Source of the DNA: Escherichia virus TH54 | Sequence record: MT446420.1 | Direction: 5' to 3' (one strand) | DNA length: 64,000 nt | In this document: positions 9,253 through 55,591 of the stretch, piece after piece | Layout: every line of letters starts with the position of its first letter | Position numbering within the stretch: position 1 is the first letter of the stretch | Made by a program: the position numbers and the translations under genes | Notes under the pieces: model-generated | The model's input: only the letters and a program-made list of their open reading frames with translations | What the model was told of the DNA's origin: nothing | The model's database searches: none

Positions 9253-9544
9253 ATTTTTTCCAGTCACTAATTAATCGCACATCCTGGTCATACGTCAGGA
9301 GGCTACGAGTTATAATACCCTTACATGGTCCAGAAATAAATTCCAGGGTAAAGTAAGGAACCAACTTCATCAAGCGAATACTCGGAGCAGTGCAACGAAA
9401 TCTGGACCCAATAAAAGGTCCAGACAAAAACACATACTCAAAGAAATTTGCTTTATTAAAGATTTCAAAATTCTTTACGAAATCTTCTGACCTAACCTTT
9501 GGAATAAAATAGATTTGGTCAAAAAGCTCTTCATGGGTCATCAT
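9245..9544 (-). CDS. hypothetical protein
   Basis: 99-aa ORF with ATGA overlap to upstream gene. Confidence 0.4.
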   Translation of the reverse strand: MMTHEELFDQIYFIPKVRSEDFVKNFEIFNKANFFEYVFLSGPFIGSRFRCTAPSIRLMKLVPYFTLEFISGPCKGIITRSLLTYDQDVRLISDWKKYV

Positions 9545-10086
9545 TGCATTCCTATCACAAAGAACAGTGGACGTGTGGTTTGATTGGTTTCTTCACATGA
9601 TGCACGACAGCAATGTTGCACCACCTTTATATGGGCATCGTAAATTTTATCCATATCCGGTGTTTTAATAGGTTCATCAATTATATACAGAATACGTGAA
9701 AGTGATAATCCACGGAATTTGCATGCAGTATTACCAATAAAACTACGAACAGAATCAGTGTACAAACGATACTTAATACTTTCTGTATGGTTATTAAAAT
9801 ATTCCTTTCTGATTGCAGTAGCCGAAACATTAGCATATGCCGTGTTATTAGACAAAATAACAATAGAACCGCCATCAGCTAACCATTCCGTAGCAAAAAT
9901 GGATACCGCTTTAGTTTTACCGGATTGGCGCCCGCCATCAAGTTTTAAGGTGCAGCATTCTTTAAACAGGGTTTGTGAATCGGGTACATAAAACCCACTA
10001 TTACAAATGTGTTCTACTCTAGCATCAGAATGGTTTGCAAAAGCATTCATCAGGGATAGATAACTACCGGTTAAAAACGTTTTCAT
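9541..10086 (-). CDS. small P-loop NTPase
   Basis: 181 aa; Walker A GGRQSGKT and Walker B-like ILYIIDEP. Confidence 0.5.
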   Translation of the reverse strand: MKTFLTGSYLSLMNAFANHSDARVEHICNSGFYVPDSQTLFKECCTLKLDGGRQSGKTKAVSIFATEWLADGGSIVILSNNTAYANVSATAIRKEYFNNHTESIKYRLYTDSVRSFIGNTACKFRGLSLSRILYIIDEPIKTPDMDKIYDAHIKVVQHCCRASCEETNQTTRPLFFVIGMQ

Positions 10087-10087
10087 A

Positions 10088-10155
10088 ATTGTCTCTTTTT
10101 AAGTTGTGGGCCGTTCCTTGGCACATTAATTCATCCATGTATCCGAATGTAAACC
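10088..10155 (-). promoter_or_regulatory. putative early promoter (-35 GTTTAC) for P-loop gene
   Basis: minus-strand GTTTAC with AT-rich -10 region and AAGAG SD before ATG 10086. Confidence 0.3.
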
Positions 10156-10250
10156 CCTTACCGCACTCGGGCTCGACCTTATTACAGGTAGGGAAAGGTC
10201 CATCACTCAGAGGACGCGACGTTCATGAGGAGAGGGTCGGTTTGCCTTTA

Positions 10251-10550
10251 TTAAAAAGAACCAGAGCCTTTAATTGTGTTCTGGCGACCTTTATTTTCTA
10301 ATTCAGAATGGTCGATTTCGTATGCTTGTGCTACACCAAAGGCCTTTTTAACTTTAGCTAAAGAACCTTTAGATGTAACAATATTAAAAGTATTACCTTT
10401 AGTAAAATCAACCAAATCCACTTGTACACCCTGTTTACCGAGGCTTGCTACAATAGCATCAACATATTGTTGGTCTAAATTACCCTGAACCCCAATTTGA
10501 AATGCTTTAGGAGCTTTGACTTCAGTAATAAATTCTTGATAAGTTTTCAT
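10251..10550 (-). CDS. internal-protein-like, N-terminal capsid targeting sequence
   Basis: 99 aa starting MKTYQEFITE, matching the conserved CTS of T4 IPI/IPII/IPIII. Confidence 0.6.
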   Translation of the reverse strand: MKTYQEFITEVKAPKAFQIGVQGNLDQQYVDAIVASLGKQGVQVDLVDFTKGNTFNIVTSKGSLAKVKKAFGVAQAYEIDHSELENKGRQNTIKGSGSF

Positions 10551-10552
10551 TT

Positions 10553-10605
10553 ATTCGCTCCAAGTTGATAGGATAATTATACACTATCCCATCATAAAGT
10601 AAACA
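10553..10605 (-). promoter_or_regulatory. early promoter GTTTAC-N17-TATAAT with -10 inside inverted repeat
   Basis: minus strand GTTTACtttatgatgggatagtgTATAAT; GATGGGATA / TATCCTATC arms flank the -10. Confidence 0.6.
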
Positions 10606-10606
10606 G

Positions 10607-10870
10607 TTATGCTTTACCGCCAGAAACAATACCAAAGGTCTCAAAGTCCCATTCAATATCGTCAACATCAACTTTCTTACCAGCAACCACGAATGCGATT
10701 TCGCGACGTTTTGCATAGGTGACAATTTCTTTACCATCACCACCAAAGAAAGAATAACCATTGCGCTTCATGGTGCCAAAGTCTTCAGCATCACCGGCGA
10801 AGGCGCGGACTTTAAAAGCACCGGTAGGAGCTTTAGCAGATTCAGTAATAAATTCTTGATAAGTTTTCAT
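10607..10870 (-). CDS. internal-protein-like, CTS-bearing
   Basis: 87 aa starting MKTYQEFITE. Confidence 0.6.
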   Translation of the reverse strand: MKTYQEFITESAKAPTGAFKVRAFAGDAEDFGTMKRNGYSFFGGDGKEIVTYAKRREIAFVVAGKKVDVDDIEWDFETFGIVSGGKA

Positions 10871-10883
10871 AATGTCTCTTTAA

Positions 10884-11198
10884 TTACTCTTTAGGGAAAT
10901 CACGCAAAAATGCATCATAAAGTTTATTACCAATGCGACGGAATGCTTTTGCCGCATGAACGTTATCCGGATTTGCAATTTTAATCTGCATTACATGACT
11001 ACCAGCCCATGATTTGGCTTCATCATAATAGCCTTTAATTTCTTTAATAGTCTTACGTTTTCCACCAGGGCCATCAACAGTAATTTTCCACGAACCCGTG
11101 CTCGTTTCACTTGGTGGGGTTAATTGTTCAATCCAGACATAACCACCTTCAACACGTTTTTGGGTAGATTCAGTAATAAATTCTTGATAAGTTTTCAT
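10884..11198 (-). CDS. internal-protein-like, CTS-bearing
   Basis: 105 aa from internal Met MKTYQEFITESTQKR; promoter and SD precede this Met. Confidence 0.55.
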   Translation of the reverse strand: MKTYQEFITESTQKRVEGGYVWIEQLTPPSETSTGSWKITVDGPGGKRKTIKEIKGYYDEAKSWAGSHVMQIKIANPDNVHAAKAFRRIGNKLYDAFLRDFPKE

Positions 11199-11200
11199 TT

Positions 11201-11258
11201 TATATTCCATTGTTTGGTTGATAAAATCATTATACAACCTTTTTAGTTAAGCGTACAC
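11201..11258 (-). promoter_or_regulatory. early promoter (-35 GTGTAC, -10 TATAAT)
   Basis: minus strand TGTACG-N17-TATAAT upstream of ATG 11198. Confidence 0.5.
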
Positions 11259-11663
11259 AGCTTTCCCATAGTATTTGTACCAGGTAGGCTTTTGAGAAAT
11301 TTTCTCATTCAGTCTGGCTTGACTGATTTCAATTGACCAGATTGATGGTTGATAATCATTTTTCCATTCATCAGGAATATCACTTAAATCTTGGGTAGAA
11401 ATATCTTTTATGTTAAACCCTCGCTTTAAACATTCTGCAATAAGTTCTTGATGACGGTTTTTAAGGAACAAAAGTTTATCATAAAAGAAGGTAACATGAC
11501 CAGTCCCTAAAAGAAAAGATGATGGGATTTTAAAGTCAGAAACCTTTTTACCATTTTGCACATGCTTACGAACAGCACCAAACACGCGAGGAAGTTCACG
11601 ATATTCAGCCATAAGATGTTGGTCAGCGAGTTCAGATACCAGGGTTAAATTAATGCGAGTCAT
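11247..11663 (-). CDS. denV: endonuclease V (pyrimidine dimer DNA glycosylase)
   Basis: 138 aa, [34 protein letters not shown]...; near-identical to T4 DenV. Confidence 0.9.
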
Positions 11664-11665
11664 GT

Positions 11666-11719
11666 TTGTTCTCCGTAGTTGATAGGGTCATTATAACCCT
11701 ATCATTTGGAGATGTACAC
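11666..11719 (-). promoter_or_regulatory. early promoter (-35 GTGTAC, -10 TATAAT) inside GATAGGGT inverted repeat
   Basis: minus strand GTGTACatctccaaatgatagggtTATAATgaccctatc. Confidence 0.55.
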
Positions 11720-12207
11720 TAATATGCGTCAAAAGTTCCGGTACGGAACGTTTCTATAACTCGTTTGGCTCGGTTCGGAGTCTGGACTTTATACCATCTC
11801 GAGTCGGCCAGTTCCTTAGCGGCGGCTTCCCACGATTTGGCCTTCAACAATCGCATACCCTTAGGAAAACCAGCTACCCCTGCAACACCCATCTGGAATA
11901 CCATATTAATGAGTGCACAACGACGAACTTCATCCAGTACATCATAAACAGGTTTTAAGACAGGATGCCTCAAGATTCCGGCTTTAGCTTTTTCGACCGA
12001 ACGGTTAAACAATGTTTCAGCTTCGTGCTGGGTTATGCGACCATTGCAAACGCGACCCATGAGCTTATCGAGTTCGGCACGAGCAACATCTTTTGATGGG
12101 TTCTTAGTTATCAGTTGCCCGATACCAATGGTCCAATAGCCTTCAGTATCTTTATACAAATCCAACTTACAACCTTCATCTATGCGTAACATTTCGAATA
12201 TATTCAT
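11719..12207 (-). CDS. e: lysozyme (endolysin)
   Basis: 162 aa, [12 protein letters not shown]...[10 protein letters not shown]...; catalytic Glu11/Asp20 context as in T4 lysozyme. Confidence 0.92.
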
Positions 12208-12234
12208 AATACCCCCTTTATATAGGGGTATTTA

Positions 12235-12693
12235 TTATCCGAAAATTTGAGTCATTACCTTGTACATCGATTTACCCATCACATACTGCCATTGACTCGG
12301 TTTAATCAAAGCAAATGCATCGAACTCTGGGACTGTACTACCATCCGGGAAGGTATGATAGGCAGAGCATTTACTATGTCTGAACTGCTCATGCTCGACC
12401 GGAACCGTGTACAGAAACAGGTGAAGATTTTTGTTATCTGAATAGCGGAATTCACCCAGGTCCTTTAAGAATGCTGGGTCATATTGGGTAAACCCGGTTT
12501 CTTCTTCGGTTTCACGGATAGCAGCTTCAATCGGGGATTCATCAGCTTCAACATGACCCTTAGGGATGTCCCATTTGTGTGCAGGCATACCTGGTTTACG
12601 AGAACCGGTCACACGACCCATGAATAACTCTTTATCTTCAGTCATGAAAATAATGCCAGCAGATAATTCTTTCACCTTGTTTTTCTTACTCAT
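12235..12693 (-). CDS. nudE: Nudix hydrolase
   Basis: Nudix box GHVEADESPIEAAIRETEEETG; start MSKKNKV overlaps upstream stop. Confidence 0.8.
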   Translation of the reverse strand: MSKKNKVKELSAGIIFMTEDKELFMGRVTGSRKPGMPAHKWDIPKGHVEADESPIEAAIRETEEETGFTQYDPAFLKDLGEFRYSDNKNLHLFLYTVPVEHEQFRHSKCSAYHTFPDGSTVPEFDAFALIKPSQWQYVMGKSMYKVMTQIFG

Positions 12694-12922
12694 CGTCACG
12701 TTCCCAGGATTGGTTAAAAATATCACTCATTAAAAATTCAAGTCTATTTTCCAATGAAGGGGATTCACTATCAGAAATTTGAATTCTGTATTCAGAAATA
12801 GGGCGGAACATATCCAAGTCAGTTTCTAAATCATCTTTGATTTTCTCTTCTGATGTACCTGTATCATAGGAATACAGATAAGAATCACACGACTCAGATT
12901 TAATATAAATTGCAATACTCAT
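12686..12922 (-). CDS. hypothetical acidic protein
   Basis: 78-aa ORF, coupled to nudE. Confidence 0.4.
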   Translation of the reverse strand: MSIAIYIKSESCDSYLYSYDTGTSEEKIKDDLETDLDMFRPISEYRIQISDSESPSLENRLEFLMSDIFNQSWERDDE

Positions 12923-21100: not shown

Positions 21101-21484
21101 TTATCCGCGAGCGAATGCCATTGCAGCGCGTTCGTTGGCACGGTCGGTGATGTTCAAGAATTTATCACGAGCGATTTCGATTGGAGCGCCAACCCAGTCA
21201 GCAGCACCATTACCCGGAGACTGTTTAGGACGGACCATATAAGTCGAAACTTTGGAACCGGCTAGTTTGGCACCTGGTGCCGCGGCATTTTTAACGTCTT
21301 TGGCTTTGATGCCAAATCCAGTTACGATACCCCAAGAAACGCCATTAACTGGTTTCTTGAACATAACACGGTCACCAATTGAAACACCAGCTTTTTCTGG
21401 AGCCACTAAAGAAAATTTACCAGCTTCAGTCAGTACGGATTCGGTGATGGTATTGCGATTTAAAAATTCTGCATATGTAAGCAT
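21101..21484 (-). CDS. hypothetical protein, possibly late-expressed
   Basis: 127-aa ORF; exact TATAAATA about 30 nt upstream on minus strand; terminator downstream. Confidence 0.45.
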   Translation of the reverse strand: MLTYAEFLNRNTITESVLTEAGKFSLVAPEKAGVSIGDRVMFKKPVNGVSWGIVTGFGIKAKDVKNAAAPGAKLAGSKVSTYMVRPKQSPGNGAADWVGAPIEIARDKFLNITDRANERAAMAFARG

Positions 21485-21515: not shown

Positions 21516-21523
21516 TATTTATA
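21516..21523 (-). promoter_or_regulatory. late promoter TATAAATA on minus strand
   Basis: exact T4 late-promoter octamer upstream of ORF 21101-21484. Confidence 0.4.
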
Positions 21524-23633: not shown

Positions 23634-23888
23634 TTATTTTTTAGGGATACGATAGTAACGCATCTCAACATCTTTCTGCTTGTGCCACTTTTTGATAAGG
23701 TCTTCAGAACCTTTAATGGTAACGATGTCATAGCGACCATCATGCGATACTTCAGCACTTAACTGCATGAAGTTGTCTAATGAACGGCGGAATTCTTCAT
23801 TAGAAAAACTGCCACGCGGGGAACCAACATAAGCAAACTCAACTTTTGCATCTGCGGCTTCGTTAATAAATTCTTGATAAGTTTTCAT
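23634..23888 (-). CDS. internal-protein-like, CTS-bearing
   Basis: 84 aa starting MKTYQEFINE. Confidence 0.6.
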   Translation of the reverse strand: MKTYQEFINEAADAKVEFAYVGSPRGSFSNEEFRRSLDNFMQLSAEVSHDGRYDIVTIKGSEDLIKKWHKQKDVEMRYYRIPKK

Positions 23889-23889
23889 T

Positions 23890-23945
23890 AGTAGCTCCAG
23901 TAGTTGATGGGATAATTATACTGCAACTATCCCATCGCGTACATT
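23890..23945 (-). promoter_or_regulatory. early promoter (-35 ATGTAC, -10 TATAAT inside GGGATAG inverted repeat)
   Basis: same architecture as 23580-23633. Confidence 0.5.
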
Positions 23946-24243
23946 ACATTTTTGAACCACGAATTACACCATAAGCGGCGAAGTCGTCAGAAATATCTTT
24001 AGGAGAGTTCTTACCAGTTTCAATGAAGGCAATGCTTGACTTCTGACTAAAAGAGGTAATTTTGTTATAGTTGGAGTCAAGGAAGGTATAACCATTTTTA
24101 CGCAGCTGGTCAAAGTCTTCAGCGTCGCCTTTACCTTTGAAGTCAACCCATTTGTAGGTGTTTTTCTTCTGAAGGCCCAGAGGCCAGGTTTTTGCTTCTG
24201 CCAGGTAATTGTTTTCTACCAAAAATTCATGAAAAGTTTGCAT
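23944..24243 (-). CDS. internal-protein-like, divergent CTS
   Basis: 99 aa starting MQTFHEFLVE. Confidence 0.5.
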   Translation of the reverse strand: MQTFHEFLVENNYLAEAKTWPLGLQKKNTYKWVDFKGKGDAEDFDQLRKNGYTFLDSNYNKITSFSQKSSIAFIETGKNSPKDISDDFAAYGVIRGSKM

Positions 24244-24251
24244 TTGAAATC

Positions 24252-24524
24252 CTATTTTAGATAAATTGCATATTTTTTATAACCAGCCGTCTCATGACGG
24301 AGACCCTTGTCATTGGCAAAACGCTCAATGTTATTAATTTGGTTCTGGTCAAGTTCTGAAATGTCAAACGCGAAAAAGTTGCGTTTGTTGCCAATTGTTA
24401 TATGGTCAGTTAAGTCAATGCTATACAGGTGATTGATATTGTCAATCATAGCTTTGACTGCTTTACTAATTTTTACTTCTTCATTCAGTTGGGACTCGTT
24501 GAAAAATTCATTGAAAGTTTTCAT
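24252..24524 (-). CDS. internal-protein-like, divergent CTS
   Basis: 90 aa starting MKTFNEFFNE. Confidence 0.5.
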   Translation of the reverse strand: MKTFNEFFNESQLNEEVKISKAVKAMIDNINHLYSIDLTDHITIGNKRNFFAFDISELDQNQINNIERFANDKGLRHETAGYKKYAIYLK

Positions 24525-24532
24525 AAGAAACC

Positions 24533-24865
24533 TTATTTATAAAGTTTTGCCAGTTCTTTACGTCCGCGAGCAGACATAATAAATTGTTCATCGCCAATTT
24601 TAAAATAAGCCATACCGCCGTCAACAGCGATACCAATTTCTTTAGTACCTTCTTTGCCTTTCCACTTGCCACCAGATTTCAGGACAGCTTCAACTGCAGC
24701 TTTGGAATATTTGGACGTTTGAAAACGTTCATTACCAATCTGAAAGAAAACACCATCTGCATTTTTGGTTAAACCAAATTTCAGAGAGCCTTCACTATCA
24801 TCAATTGATTTGGTCTCATTGATGGCGGATTCGGCTAAAAACTCGTTGTAAGTCTTGATGTTCAT
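24533..24865 (-). CDS. internal-protein-like (ipI locus position)
   Basis: 110 aa from MNIKTYNEFLAE; immediately upstream of 57B as ipI is in T4. Confidence 0.55.
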   Translation of the reverse strand: MNIKTYNEFLAESAINETKSIDDSEGSLKFGLTKNADGVFFQIGNERFQTSKYSKAAVEAVLKSGGKWKGKEGTKEIGIAVDGGMAYFKIGDEQFIMSARGRKELAKLYK

Positions 24866-24867
24866 TT

Positions 24868-24925
24868 TAACTCCGTTTGTTCGTTGGTGTAGGAACATAA
24901 TACTGCACCTACACTCATTTGTACA

Positions 24926-24927
<2 letters not shown>
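24868..24927 (-). promoter_or_regulatory. early promoter (-35 GTGTAC, -10 TATTAT inside GTGTAGG inverted repeat)
   Basis: minus strand GTGTACAaatgagtgtaggtgcagTATTATgttcctacac. Confidence 0.5.
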
Positions 24928-25613
<686 letters not shown>

Positions 25614-53674: not shown

Positions 53675-54102
53675 TGTTTATTATCCCTGATGATTACGAA
53701 TTAACTCTTGAAAACATCGAAAGTGTTTCCGAAGAAGCTCAGGGACAATTTGATTCATTATCCGAAGCCTTAGAAAAAGACGATATAAATATTATTGTAG
53801 AAAACATGTTTGCAGCCGGTGAATACGAAAAAGCAACGGTTATCGGCGCACTGAATGAAGGTGTTCAGCTTAACGAATTTATCGTTAAACATGTATCGTC
53901 TCGCGGTGAGTTAACCCGCACAAAAGACCTAGCTACTCGTAAGCGTAATGCTTTCCAAACAACTGGTCTTTCTAAAGCTAAACGTCGTCAAATTGCCCGT
54001 CTGGCTACTAAAACAAAAAGAGCAAACCCATCTACGCAAATCAGAGCAGAGCGCAAGCGCAAAAAAGCTCGAGCTAAGCGTAAAGCATTCGGACTTGATT
54101 AA
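53674..54102 (+). CDS. 68: prohead core protein gp68
   Basis: 142 aa, basic C-terminus. Confidence 0.75.
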
Positions 54103-54740
54103 TGGAACAGAAACCAGAGTTACTAATCGAACACTGGGGTCAACCGGGCGAAATTAAAGATGGTGTACCGATGTTGGAATCTCATGATGGTTCCAGCAGC
54201 GGTTTAAAGCCAGGACTTTATATTGAAGGTATTTTCCTACAAGCTGAAGTTGTTAACCGTAATAAACGACTTTATCCTAAACATATTTTGGAAAAAGCCG
54301 TTGCGGACTATATCGCCGAACAGGTTGAAACCAAACAGTCTCTTGGAGAATTAAACCATCCACCTCGTGCAAACGTTGACCCTATGCAGGCGGCAATTAT
54401 TATAGAGGACATGTGGTGGAAAGGGAATGATGTATATGGCCGCGCGCGTATTATCGAAGGCGACCATGGCCCAGGTGATAAACTTGCTGCGAATATAAGA
54501 GCAGGTTGGATTCCTGGTGTATCTAGTCGTGGACTTGGTTCCTTGACTAAATCAGCAAAAGGTTATAGCATCGTTAATGAAGGTTTTAAATTGACGGTTG
54601 GAGTAGACGCAGTATGGGGGCCAAGTGCTCCGGACGCTTGGGTCAAACCAAAGCAGATTACAGAATCACAAACGGCAGTTGCCGATACCAGTGCCGATGA
54701 CGCCTTTATGGCTCTCGCAGAGGCTTTAAAGACGTTATAA
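54102..54740 (+). CDS. 21: prohead core protease gp21
   Basis: 212 aa. Confidence 0.9.
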   Translation: MEQKPELLIEHWGQPGEIKDGVPMLESHDGSSSGLKPGLYIEGIFLQAEVVNRNKRLYPKHILEKAVADYIAEQVETKQSLGELNHPPRANVDPMQAAIIIEDMWWKGNDVYGRARIIEGDHGPGDKLAANIRAGWIPGVSSRGLGSLTKSAKGYSIVNEGFKLTVGVDAVWGPSAPDAWVKPKQITESQTAVADTSADDAFMALAEALKTL

Positions 54741-54772: not shown

Positions 54773-55591
54773 ATGCTTAAAGAACAACTCATTTCTGAAG
54801 CTCAGAATATCGATGCTTCCGTTGCTCTTGATAGTATTTTCGAATCAGTTAATTTGTCCCCGGAAGCGAAAGCTACCTTCGGCACTGTATTCGAAGCTAC
54901 CGTCAAGCAACACGCCATCAAACTGGCAGAATCTCACATTCACGCCATCGCTGAAAAAGCTGAAGAAGAAGTCGAAAAGAATAAAGAAGAAGCCGACGAA
55001 AAAGCAGAGAAAAAACTGAAAGAATCTGCAGCTAAATTCCTGGACCACGTTGCTAAAGAATGGCTCGCTGAAAATAAACTGGCTGTCGACCGTGGCATTA
55101 AAGCCGACCTGTTCGAATCCATGTTCACCGGCATGAAAGAACTGTTCGTTGAGCACAACGTTGTTGTTCCAGAAGAATCTGTCGATGTTGTTGCAGAAAT
55201 GCAGGAAGAACTGGCTGAACAGAAAGAAGAAACCGCTAATCTGTTCGAAGAAGTTGCTAAGCGTGATGCTTATATCAATTATGTCCAACGTGAAGTTGCG
55301 TTGACTGAAGCGACTAAAGACCTGACTGAATCTCAAAAAGAAAAAGTTGGTTCTCTGGTAGAAGGCATGGAATACTCTGATGCATTCGGTACCAAAATTG
55401 GCGCTATCGTTGAAATGGTTAAAGGTCAGGTAGAAGCCACCGACAAACCAATCACCGAAGCCGCTATAAATAAAAATGTAGACGATGCTGCGGCACTGAA
55501 TTACATTTCAGAAGCAGTTGAAGAAAAAGGCACCAAGCCTACCCTGTCCTTTGCGGACTTGTCTGCTCTCGCAGCATCACGAATTTCTTAA
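54773..55591 (+). CDS. 22: prohead core scaffold protein gp22
   Basis: 272 aa, highly helical and acidic. Confidence 0.85.
   Translation: MLKEQLISEAQNIDASVALDSIFESVNLSPEAKATFGTVFEATVKQHAIKLAESHIHAIAEKAEEEVEKNKEEADEKAEKKLKESAAKFLDHVAKEWLAENKLAVDRGIKADLFESMFTGMKELFVEHNVVVPEESVDVVAEMQEELAEQKEETANLFEEVAKRDAYINYVQREVALTEATKDLTESQKEKVGSLVEGMEYSDAFGTKIGAIVEMVKGQVEATDKPITEAAINKNVDDAAALNYISEAVEEKGTKPTLSFADLSALAASRIS

Follow-up and report, generated by a model that had tools for sequence, protein, structure and literature searches.

The internal proteins of phage T4 are small proteins brought into the head by an N-terminal capsid targeting sequence (CTS), which the prohead protease gp21 removes. The first 10 residues of IPIII suffice for packaging, and mutagenesis by Mullaney and Black traced targeting mainly to CTS residues 4 and 7 and processing to residues 8 and 10 (reviewed in PMC9026906); each T4 internal protein is packaged at about 360 copies (PMC9026906). 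In T4, each of Ip1, Ip2, and Ip3 inhibits a single, different GmrSD type IV restriction enzyme, without cross-protection (Silas et al. 2025, PMC12373910), and internal proteins are seen in the current literature as injected anti-defence effectors (Rao and Black 2010; Silas et al. 2025, PMC12373910). Here we analyze an array of three candidate internal protein genes in a 64,000-nt stretch of Escherichia virus TH54 (MT446420.1), which we call the window; the three open reading frames (ORFs) are named ipA, ipB, and ipC. The best explanation, and in our judgment a probable one, is that these are three genuine T4-type internal protein genes of the Ip10, RB69-ORF125c, and Ip7 families, situated at the denV-proximal internal protein (IP) locus, whose products would be packaged, processed, and injected.

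The three ORFs follow one another on the minus strand, and each opens with MKTYQEFITE, as found both in the program-made ORF list and in a six-frame motif scan. An earlier note, made from the letters of this DNA alone, had described three consecutive small ORFs with this N terminus next to denV; the array itself, its span (10251-11198, which runs exactly from the ipC stop to the ipA ATG), and its adjacency to a denV gene recognized by Pfam and PHROG matches were all borne out (Table 1). In the ORF list, ipA runs out to a TTG at 11237, upstream of its true ATG. The start of ipB lies 13 nt past the ipA stop, with no promoter in between. The opening 30 nt, ATGAAAACTTATCAAGAATTTATTACTGAA, are the same in ipA, ipB, and ipC, a repeat with a chance expectation of 0 and with 0 matches in 100 dinucleotide-preserving shuffles of the window; a fourth, imperfect copy (2 mismatches) is located at 23859-23888.

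Table 1. Positions, in the window, of the candidate internal protein genes and of the features discussed with them.
Feature	Position	Strand	Remarks
ipA, putative internal protein gene, Ip10 family	10884..11198	-	104 aa; ATG at 11198, stop 10884-10886
ipB, putative internal protein gene, RB69 ORF125c family	10607..10870	-	87 aa
ipC, putative internal protein gene, Ip7 family	10251..10550	-	99 aa
CTS-coding 30-nt repeat, copy 1 (MKTYQEFITE)	11169..11198	-	exact repeat
CTS-coding 30-nt repeat, copy 2	10841..10870	-	exact repeat
CTS-coding 30-nt repeat, copy 3	10521..10550	-	exact repeat
Early-promoter-like module ahead of ipA and ipB	11229..11257	-	TGTACG, 17 nt, TATAAT, then ATCAAC
Early promoter ahead of ipC	10567..10603	-	TTTACT, 16 nt, TATAAT in the loop of hairpin GATGGGATA/TATCCTATC, then ATCAAC
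denV (endonuclease V), conserved anchor gene of the IP locus	11247..11663	-	Pfam Pyr_excise, E 9.7e-16; PHROG endonuclease V, E 3.6e-62
Second IP locus, downstream of 57A and 57B	23634..24865	-	four genes with CTS-like leaders
Second-locus gene	24533-24865	-	leader MNIKTYNEFLAE
Second-locus gene	24252-24524	-	leader MKTFNEFFNE..LNE
Second-locus gene, ipB paralog	23944-24243	-	leader MQTFHEFLVE
Second-locus gene	23634-23888	-	leader MKTYQEFINE
gp21 prohead protease, would remove the CTS	54102..54740	+	Pfam Peptidase_S77, E 6.6e-102
gp22 scaffold core protein, presumed CTS docking partner	54773..55591	+	Pfam T4_CASP, E 4.8e-91

The same note had equated the leader with the CTS of T4. This identification stands in kind and in the key residues, but the T4 form, as carried by IPII and IPIII, is MKTYQEFIAE, which agrees with the leader of the window at 9 of 10 residues and differs by the sole change A9T. 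Y4, F7, I8, and E10 are all retained in ipA, ipB, and ipC, and the I-T-E at residues 8 to 10 has the Leu/Ile-x-Glu form of the gp21 motif. ITE also ends the 19-residue leader of T4 IPI (residues 17 to 19), and T4 Alt is processed by gp21 at ITE-6 (PMC5694885). On the side of the machinery, the portal protein gp20 as well as gp21, gp22, gp23, and gp24 are all encoded in the window. The N termini of gp23 and gp24 in this phage read FLTE/AEIGGDHGY and LLRE/S (slashes mark the expected cuts) at the expected positions, and we take these to correspond to the T4 maturation sites. A gp21 cut after Glu, which had likewise been proposed, finds its predicted I-T-E site in the leaders and the genes for gp21 and gp22 in the same window. 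At the level of sequence, all that CTS-mediated packaging and processing calls for is present, and we infer that the products of ipA, ipB, and ipC are physically packaged.

The codons of the leader carry a history of their own. Codons 3 and 9 are ACA and GCC in T4 versus ACT and ACT in the phage studied here, and, judging from such differences, the repeat copies are homogenized within one genome. Beyond the repeat, ipB and ipC have in common a short leader extension, (S)AKAP..AF. At residue 11, ipC of the window has valine versus alanine in all relatives examined (10521-10553, minus strand), and its leader codons ATT ACT are like those of ipA and ipB, where SP18 and EAWsc9 have ATC ACA; these observations are consistent with a short gene-conversion tract from a neighboring cassette into the ipC leader of the window.

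Behind the leader, the three proteins have little to do with each other. The blastp searches of the mature bodies, among themselves and against T4 IPI, IPII, and IPIII, returned no significant similarity (E >0.5 for the three bodies among themselves and E >0.4 against the T4 proteins), and in profile-profile alignments (hhalign) of ipA, ipB, and ipC only the first 12 to 17 residues aligned, as expected from the statement of the earlier note that the bodies are mutually unrelated. We also considered hidden body homology on the basis of shared PHROG membership (ipB and ipC in phrog_2667; ipA and the gene at 24533-24865 in phrog_3966) and rejected it, since hhalign aligned the leader alone and blastp aligned nothing; both PHROGs appear to be composites joined by the common leader. 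Cleavage at the predicted site would yield mature forms of 94 aa (10.6 kDa, isoelectric point [pI] 9.6) for ipA, 77 aa (8.3 kDa, pI 6.2) for ipB, and 89 aa (9.5 kDa, pI 9.3) for ipC, so that mature ipA and ipC are basic like T4 IPI*, IPII*, and IPIII* (pI 9.0-9.7). Within ipA, a conserved I/L-K-E at residues 51 to 53 is a possible further cleavage site.

Each body nevertheless belongs to a widespread family. The ipA product shares 100% identity with the Ip10 protein of Shigella phage SP18 and, along 97% of its length, 71.4% identity with PP01 ip10 as annotated; its family was found in 189 phage records, including Enterobacter phages at 45-53% identity. The ipB family (205 phage records) reaches 71-75% identity in many other coliphages and in Shigella and Salmonella phages, and has a paralog in the window itself (23944-24243; 38% identity, E 4e-14). 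The ipC family is present in 283 phage records, with 56-73% identity in Klebsiella phages, and ipC matches T2 ip7 at 46.6% identity over 96% of its length (E 4e-14). In comparisons with VR7, SP18, TH41, and CJ20, the ratio of nonsynonymous to synonymous differences per site (pN/pS) was 0-0.05 for ipA, 0.05-0.17 for ipB, and 0.02-0.17 for ipC, at pS values of up to 0.24; this range (0-0.17) is the same as for denV and e. The three ORFs are real genes whose products are under purifying selection.

An exhaustive HMMER search with the ipB/ipF profile gave as true relatives only small proteins with CTS-like leaders; large matches of up to ~1400 aa were discarded as repeat-summing artifacts in TIG and EF-hand repeat proteins. 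The same search brought up a 194-aa protein (P0033) that combines an ipB-like domain with a C-terminal domain resembling another internal-protein family, a make-up which suggests that internal-protein bodies may themselves be modular. Structure prediction of the mature domains, a check that the earlier note had put forward, succeeded in part. The AlphaFold model of ipC is of moderate quality (predicted local distance difference test [pLDDT] score 71) and has a ferredoxin-like beta-alpha-beta-beta-alpha-beta-alpha topology; its only significant structural neighbor is the Ip7 protein of phage MX01 (Foldseek E 2.4e-10, template modeling [TM] score 0.70). The ipA model, built from a three-sequence alignment, had a pLDDT of 52 and was too poor for a structure search. 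Weak matches of the bodies to DUF1694, NlpA, and flagellin-hook entries were dismissed as noise.

The denV gene is located immediately upstream of ipA, and e (lysozyme) and nudE come next. The order vs.8, ipC, ipB, ipA, denV, e in the window compares with vs.8, denV, ipII, ipIII, e in T4; by this gene order, the cassettes of the window occupy the same IP locus as those of T4, on the opposite flank of denV. The promoter-like module ahead of ipA and ipB is a weaker version of the ipC type, and its -35 element falls inside the 3' end of denV. For ipC, denV, and two of the second-locus genes, a -35 element GTTTAC or GTGTAC is combined with a TATAAT -10 element in the loop of a 7- to 9-bp hairpin and a following ATCAAC; the early promoter and hairpin of T4 ipI, ipII, ipIII, and denV are arranged alike. 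PMC2839356 and PMC4122927 equate such elements with the PeSL-like ones observed by Repoila et al. (1994) at the two IP loci.

Over 1.7 kb, the region is 98.0% identical to Escherichia phage CJ20 and 94-97% identical to TH57, SP18, VR20, VR7, and VR25 (all Gaprivervirus, Tevenvirinae). The VR7 annotation lists ipA as ip10, ipB as VR7ORF127c "internal head protein," and ipC as ip7, and that of SP18 lists Ip10 and two internal head proteins. The set of cassettes found between vs.8 and denV varies: all three are present in the window, CJ20, SP18, TH41, and VR7; ipA and ipC in VR26; ipA and ipB in UPEC01; ipC only in MN01 and YenP8; and ipB only in EAWsc9. In VR26, the upstream flank and first codons of ipB (..ITESAK) are joined to the ipC body (locus L006, 1676-1978); in MN01, ipC lies directly behind the ipA promoter flank (L009, 1675-1974); and the single gene of EAWsc9 (L011, 1664-1924) combines the ipA flank, an ipC-type leader, and the ipB body, the flank in the latter two phages being of the type seen at 11229..11257. 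Because the recombinant junctions of VR26, MN01, and EAWsc9 map there, the identical CTS-coding repeat, together with the adjacent AKAP codons common to ipB and ipC, is on the evidence of these alignments the crossover site for cassette deletion and reassortment. Such cassette shuffling was reportedly described in 1994 by Repoila et al., who are also said to have named the Ip10 and Ip7 internal proteins. When a small set of 41 loci was sampled, at least 28 mutually unrelated body families, 65 to 282 aa long, were found behind CTS-like leaders, in agreement with the more than 30 variants cited in PMC2839356.

The interval between denV and e, where T4 has ipII and ipIII, also varies among the relatives. 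CJ20 (L002, 4722-5024) and MN01 (L009, 2499-2801) carry there an ipII about 95% identical to that of T4, TH44 (L005, 3101-3370) carries a different internal-protein gene, and the window has only a 55-bp spacer (11664-11718).

How might these proteins act? By what is known of T4, the leader would dock the precursor onto the scaffolding core (gp22) of the assembling prohead; gp21 would then cut after Glu10 (I-T-E/S or V), freeing mature proteins of about 8 to 11 kDa that would be kept in the head and ejected with the DNA into the next host, where each would bind and block one specific host nuclease attacking modified phage DNA. For docking, cleavage, and ejection, this proposal draws on strong homology in sequence with a system that has been dissected by experiment, and for the blocking step purely on analogy. 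By that analogy, the products of ipA, ipB, and ipC are most likely packaged, processed, and injected anti-restriction proteins. The suggestion of the earlier note that the three are candidate injected anti-defence effectors of unknown specificity is supported to this extent; it matches the published view, reportedly also that of Repoila et al. (1994), and is not new.

Several observations weigh against this proposal. When ip4 to ip10 of T4-like phages, in alleles other than those of this phage, were assayed against 15 GmrSD groups, no reproducible inhibition was seen, and an apparent ip7 signal with CLS_011 failed on retest (PMC12373910). According to two surveys (PMC8056088, PMC12115623), Gapriverviruses lack a dCMP hydroxymethylase (gp42 homolog) but keep denA, denB, alc, and dCTPase. 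In VR7 (L042, record 24132-25267), we found gene 42 and b-gt both missing from the syntenic interval that uvsX and imm flank, where a 167-aa hypothetical protein with no Pfam match, VR7ORF049c, is encoded instead. Because Gapriverviruses have no recognizable dCMP hydroxymethylase, enzymes aimed at glucosylated hydroxymethylcytosine (glucosyl-hmC) DNA may not be the relevant threat for them. Unlike the T4 internal proteins, mature ipB is not basic. Functional clues were sought in Pfam, NCBIfam, and PDB sequence searches of the bodies, where nothing exceeded the threshold, and in the ipC fold, whose PDB matches are generic ACT/ferredoxin-like ones, none reaching E 0.001 and all with TM scores of 0.54 or less, so that they point to no function. 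No canonical late promoter (TATAAATA) occurs within 9400-12900, and our literature search found no virion proteomics for VR7, JS98, or the Ip7 and Ip10 families.

The points on DNA modification lead to an alternative in which the proteins are injected anti-defence effectors whose targets are not GmrSD enzymes reading glucosyl-hmC DNA; they would be, e.g., nucleases or glycosylases sensing the Gaprivervirus cytosine modification, or non-nuclease systems. The missing gp42 homolog of Gapriverviruses, the lack of gene 42 and b-gt in VR7, and the irreproducible action of ip4 to ip10 on the GmrSD groups tested all speak for such targets, and the diversity of bodies behind one leader, small as the sample is, suggests a wide target range. 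Against this stands the record of T4, where only four internal or CTS-delivered proteins have known roles, namely, the three GmrSD inhibitors and Alt, and so does the very large diversity of GmrSD, only 15 groups of which were assayed. Moreover, members of the Ip10, ORF125c, and Ip7 families are also present in other coliphages of the T-even type (47-75% identity; T2 and PP01 among them), and this favors a target common to E. coli hosts over one tied to a DNA modification. On balance, we regard this alternative as possible but rather doubtful, and we would only tentatively suppose that at least one of the three proteins inhibits a defence outside the glucosyl-hmC-directed GmrSD group. If this were true, the cassette array and its natural variants would be a ready genetic series for new defence/anti-defence pairs.

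Two further alternatives were weighed. The proteins could be mainly structural or physical parts of the head, with no specific target in the host, serving as basic counter-ions of the DNA, as packaging or ejection aids, or as scaffold accessories. The basic pI of mature ipA and ipC would fit such a role, as would the ~1000 internal protein molecules per T4 head, whose lysines touch DNA phosphates (PMC3012670), and the slower head assembly and ~40% of normal burst of T4 IPIII mutants (PMC9026906). However, one or two of the genes are missing from near-identical relatives (VR26 lacks ipB, UPEC01 lacks ipC, and MN01 and YenP8 lack both ipA and ipB), so none of the three is needed for the head; mature ipB is near neutral; the bodies look folded and are conserved in a sequence-specific manner (pN/pS of at most 0.17), not just in charge; and all three T4 Ips proved to have specific anti-restriction targets. 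A mainly structural role is unlikely. Alternatively, the proteins might not be packaged at all, but act early in the cytoplasm, with their common 5' end kept only as a recombination or translation-initiation module. The genes do have only early-type sigma-70 promoters ahead of them and no late promoter nearby, and the identical 30-nt repeat does act as a recombination site. Yet T4 ipI, ipII, and ipIII have the same early promoter-hairpin and likewise no canonical late promoter in the 110 nt upstream, and their products are nonetheless packaged at the copy number given above (PMC9026906). In addition, the leader peptide is kept across genomes despite the different codons of T4, and divergent leader variants hold the Y/F4, F7, [LI]xE pattern, which points to selection on the peptide and not on the DNA alone. 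We consider this last alternative very improbable, and packaged, processed, and injected internal proteins remain our preferred explanation.

The three genes are not the only ones of their kind in the window. At the second IP locus (Table 1), three of the four genes are labeled by PHROGs as internal head or virion proteins. A 127-aa ORF at 21101-21484 (minus strand) has a CTS-like opening, MLTYAEFLNRNTITESVLTE, with possible gp21 sites at ITE-15 and LTE-20 and no PHROG match, and a perfect late promoter, TATAAATA, is located about 30 nt upstream of it (21516-21523, minus strand). Judging from its leader, this ORF is possibly an eighth internal protein with an IPI-like long propeptide. In total, CTS-like leaders open as many as eight genes of the window, at three sites.

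Some features of the neighboring genes are recorded here for completeness. Right ahead of the e start codon (12208-12240, minus strand), a hairpin CCCCT-ATATAA-AGGGG stands beside AATAAATA, resembling the arrangement of T4, whose early transcripts have the e ribosome-binding site masked, with a late promoter inside the hairpin or close to it. On the other side of the array, the Vs.8-like protein (9541-10086, minus strand) has a weak P-loop/Terminase_6N match (Pfam E 8.5e-05; PHROG terminase large subunit E 5e-4). Its ORF restarts at an ATG at 10086, and 10087-10250 (minus strand) is the decayed 5' part of vs.8, in frame with residues 3 to 41 of T4 Vs.8 but broken by two stop codons. This GC-richer gap of 160 bp, which separates ipC from the vs.8-like ORF, was also considered as a possible RNA and set aside, with no Rfam match and a folding z-score of -0.02.

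The genes and the hypothesis of their role are already in databases and the literature, where ip10, an internal head protein, and ip7 have been listed since the VR7 and SP18 records. What is added here are the family assignments, the purifying selection, the recombination junctions mapped to the CTS repeat, and the finding that CTS-like leaders occur at three sites of the window, on up to eight genes. Internal proteins arrive with the DNA and so act ahead of any phage gene expression; in T4-type phages under consideration for therapy, they thereby form a first line of counter-defence and help to determine host range. To our knowledge, only Ip1, Ip2, and Ip3 have known targets, and we know of no function for the Ip7, Ip10, and ORF125c families, which are among the most widespread internal proteins (189 to 283 phage records). 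Among otherwise very similar phages, natural variants carry all three genes, ipA and ipC, ipA and ipB, or just ipC or just ipB, a series that could serve to match each protein with a host defence.

Among known systems, T4 IPII and IPIII are like the three proteins in their near-identical leader, denV locus, upstream early promoter-hairpin, small size, and, ipB excepted, basic character. They differ in their mature bodies, which have no detectable similarity to those studied here, and in the placement of their genes between denV and e, where those of the window lie between vs.8 and denV; in addition, T4 Ip2 and Ip3 have identified GmrSD targets (PMC12373910), unlike ipA, ipB, and ipC. The model for the proposed function is T4 IPI* (Ip1), the inhibitor of GmrS/GmrD of E. 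coli CT596, which is packaged by its CTS, cut by gp21 at ITE, and injected (PMC3012670). IPI differs in its 19-residue propeptide, in the absence of sequence similarity, and in its location at the other IP locus, near 57B, and IPI* is not among the listed top Foldseek PDB matches of the ferredoxin-like ipC model. T4 Alt, an ADP-ribosyltransferase, is likewise packaged into the head, processed by gp21, and injected, but is a large enzyme with a known catalytic domain, whereas ipA, ipB, and ipC have no domain match. The nearest kin by family are Ip10 of phages Pol and PP01 for ipA and Ip7 of T2 for ipC, whose fold is matched by the Ip7 model of MX01; ipC represents a diverged Ip7 branch common to Gaprivervirus, Dhakavirus-like, and Klebsiella phages, and in T2 and its relatives the Ip7 gene does not share the genome position of the Ip10 and ORF125c matches. 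Finally, the promoter-hairpin cassettes of PeSL and IP loci (Arbiol 2010; Comeau 2014; Repoila 1994) likewise have an early promoter whose -10 element falls in a hairpin and are gained and lost between close relatives, but the junctions mapped here lie in the CTS-coding repeat, together with the AKAP codons in VR26, rather than in the promoter hairpin.

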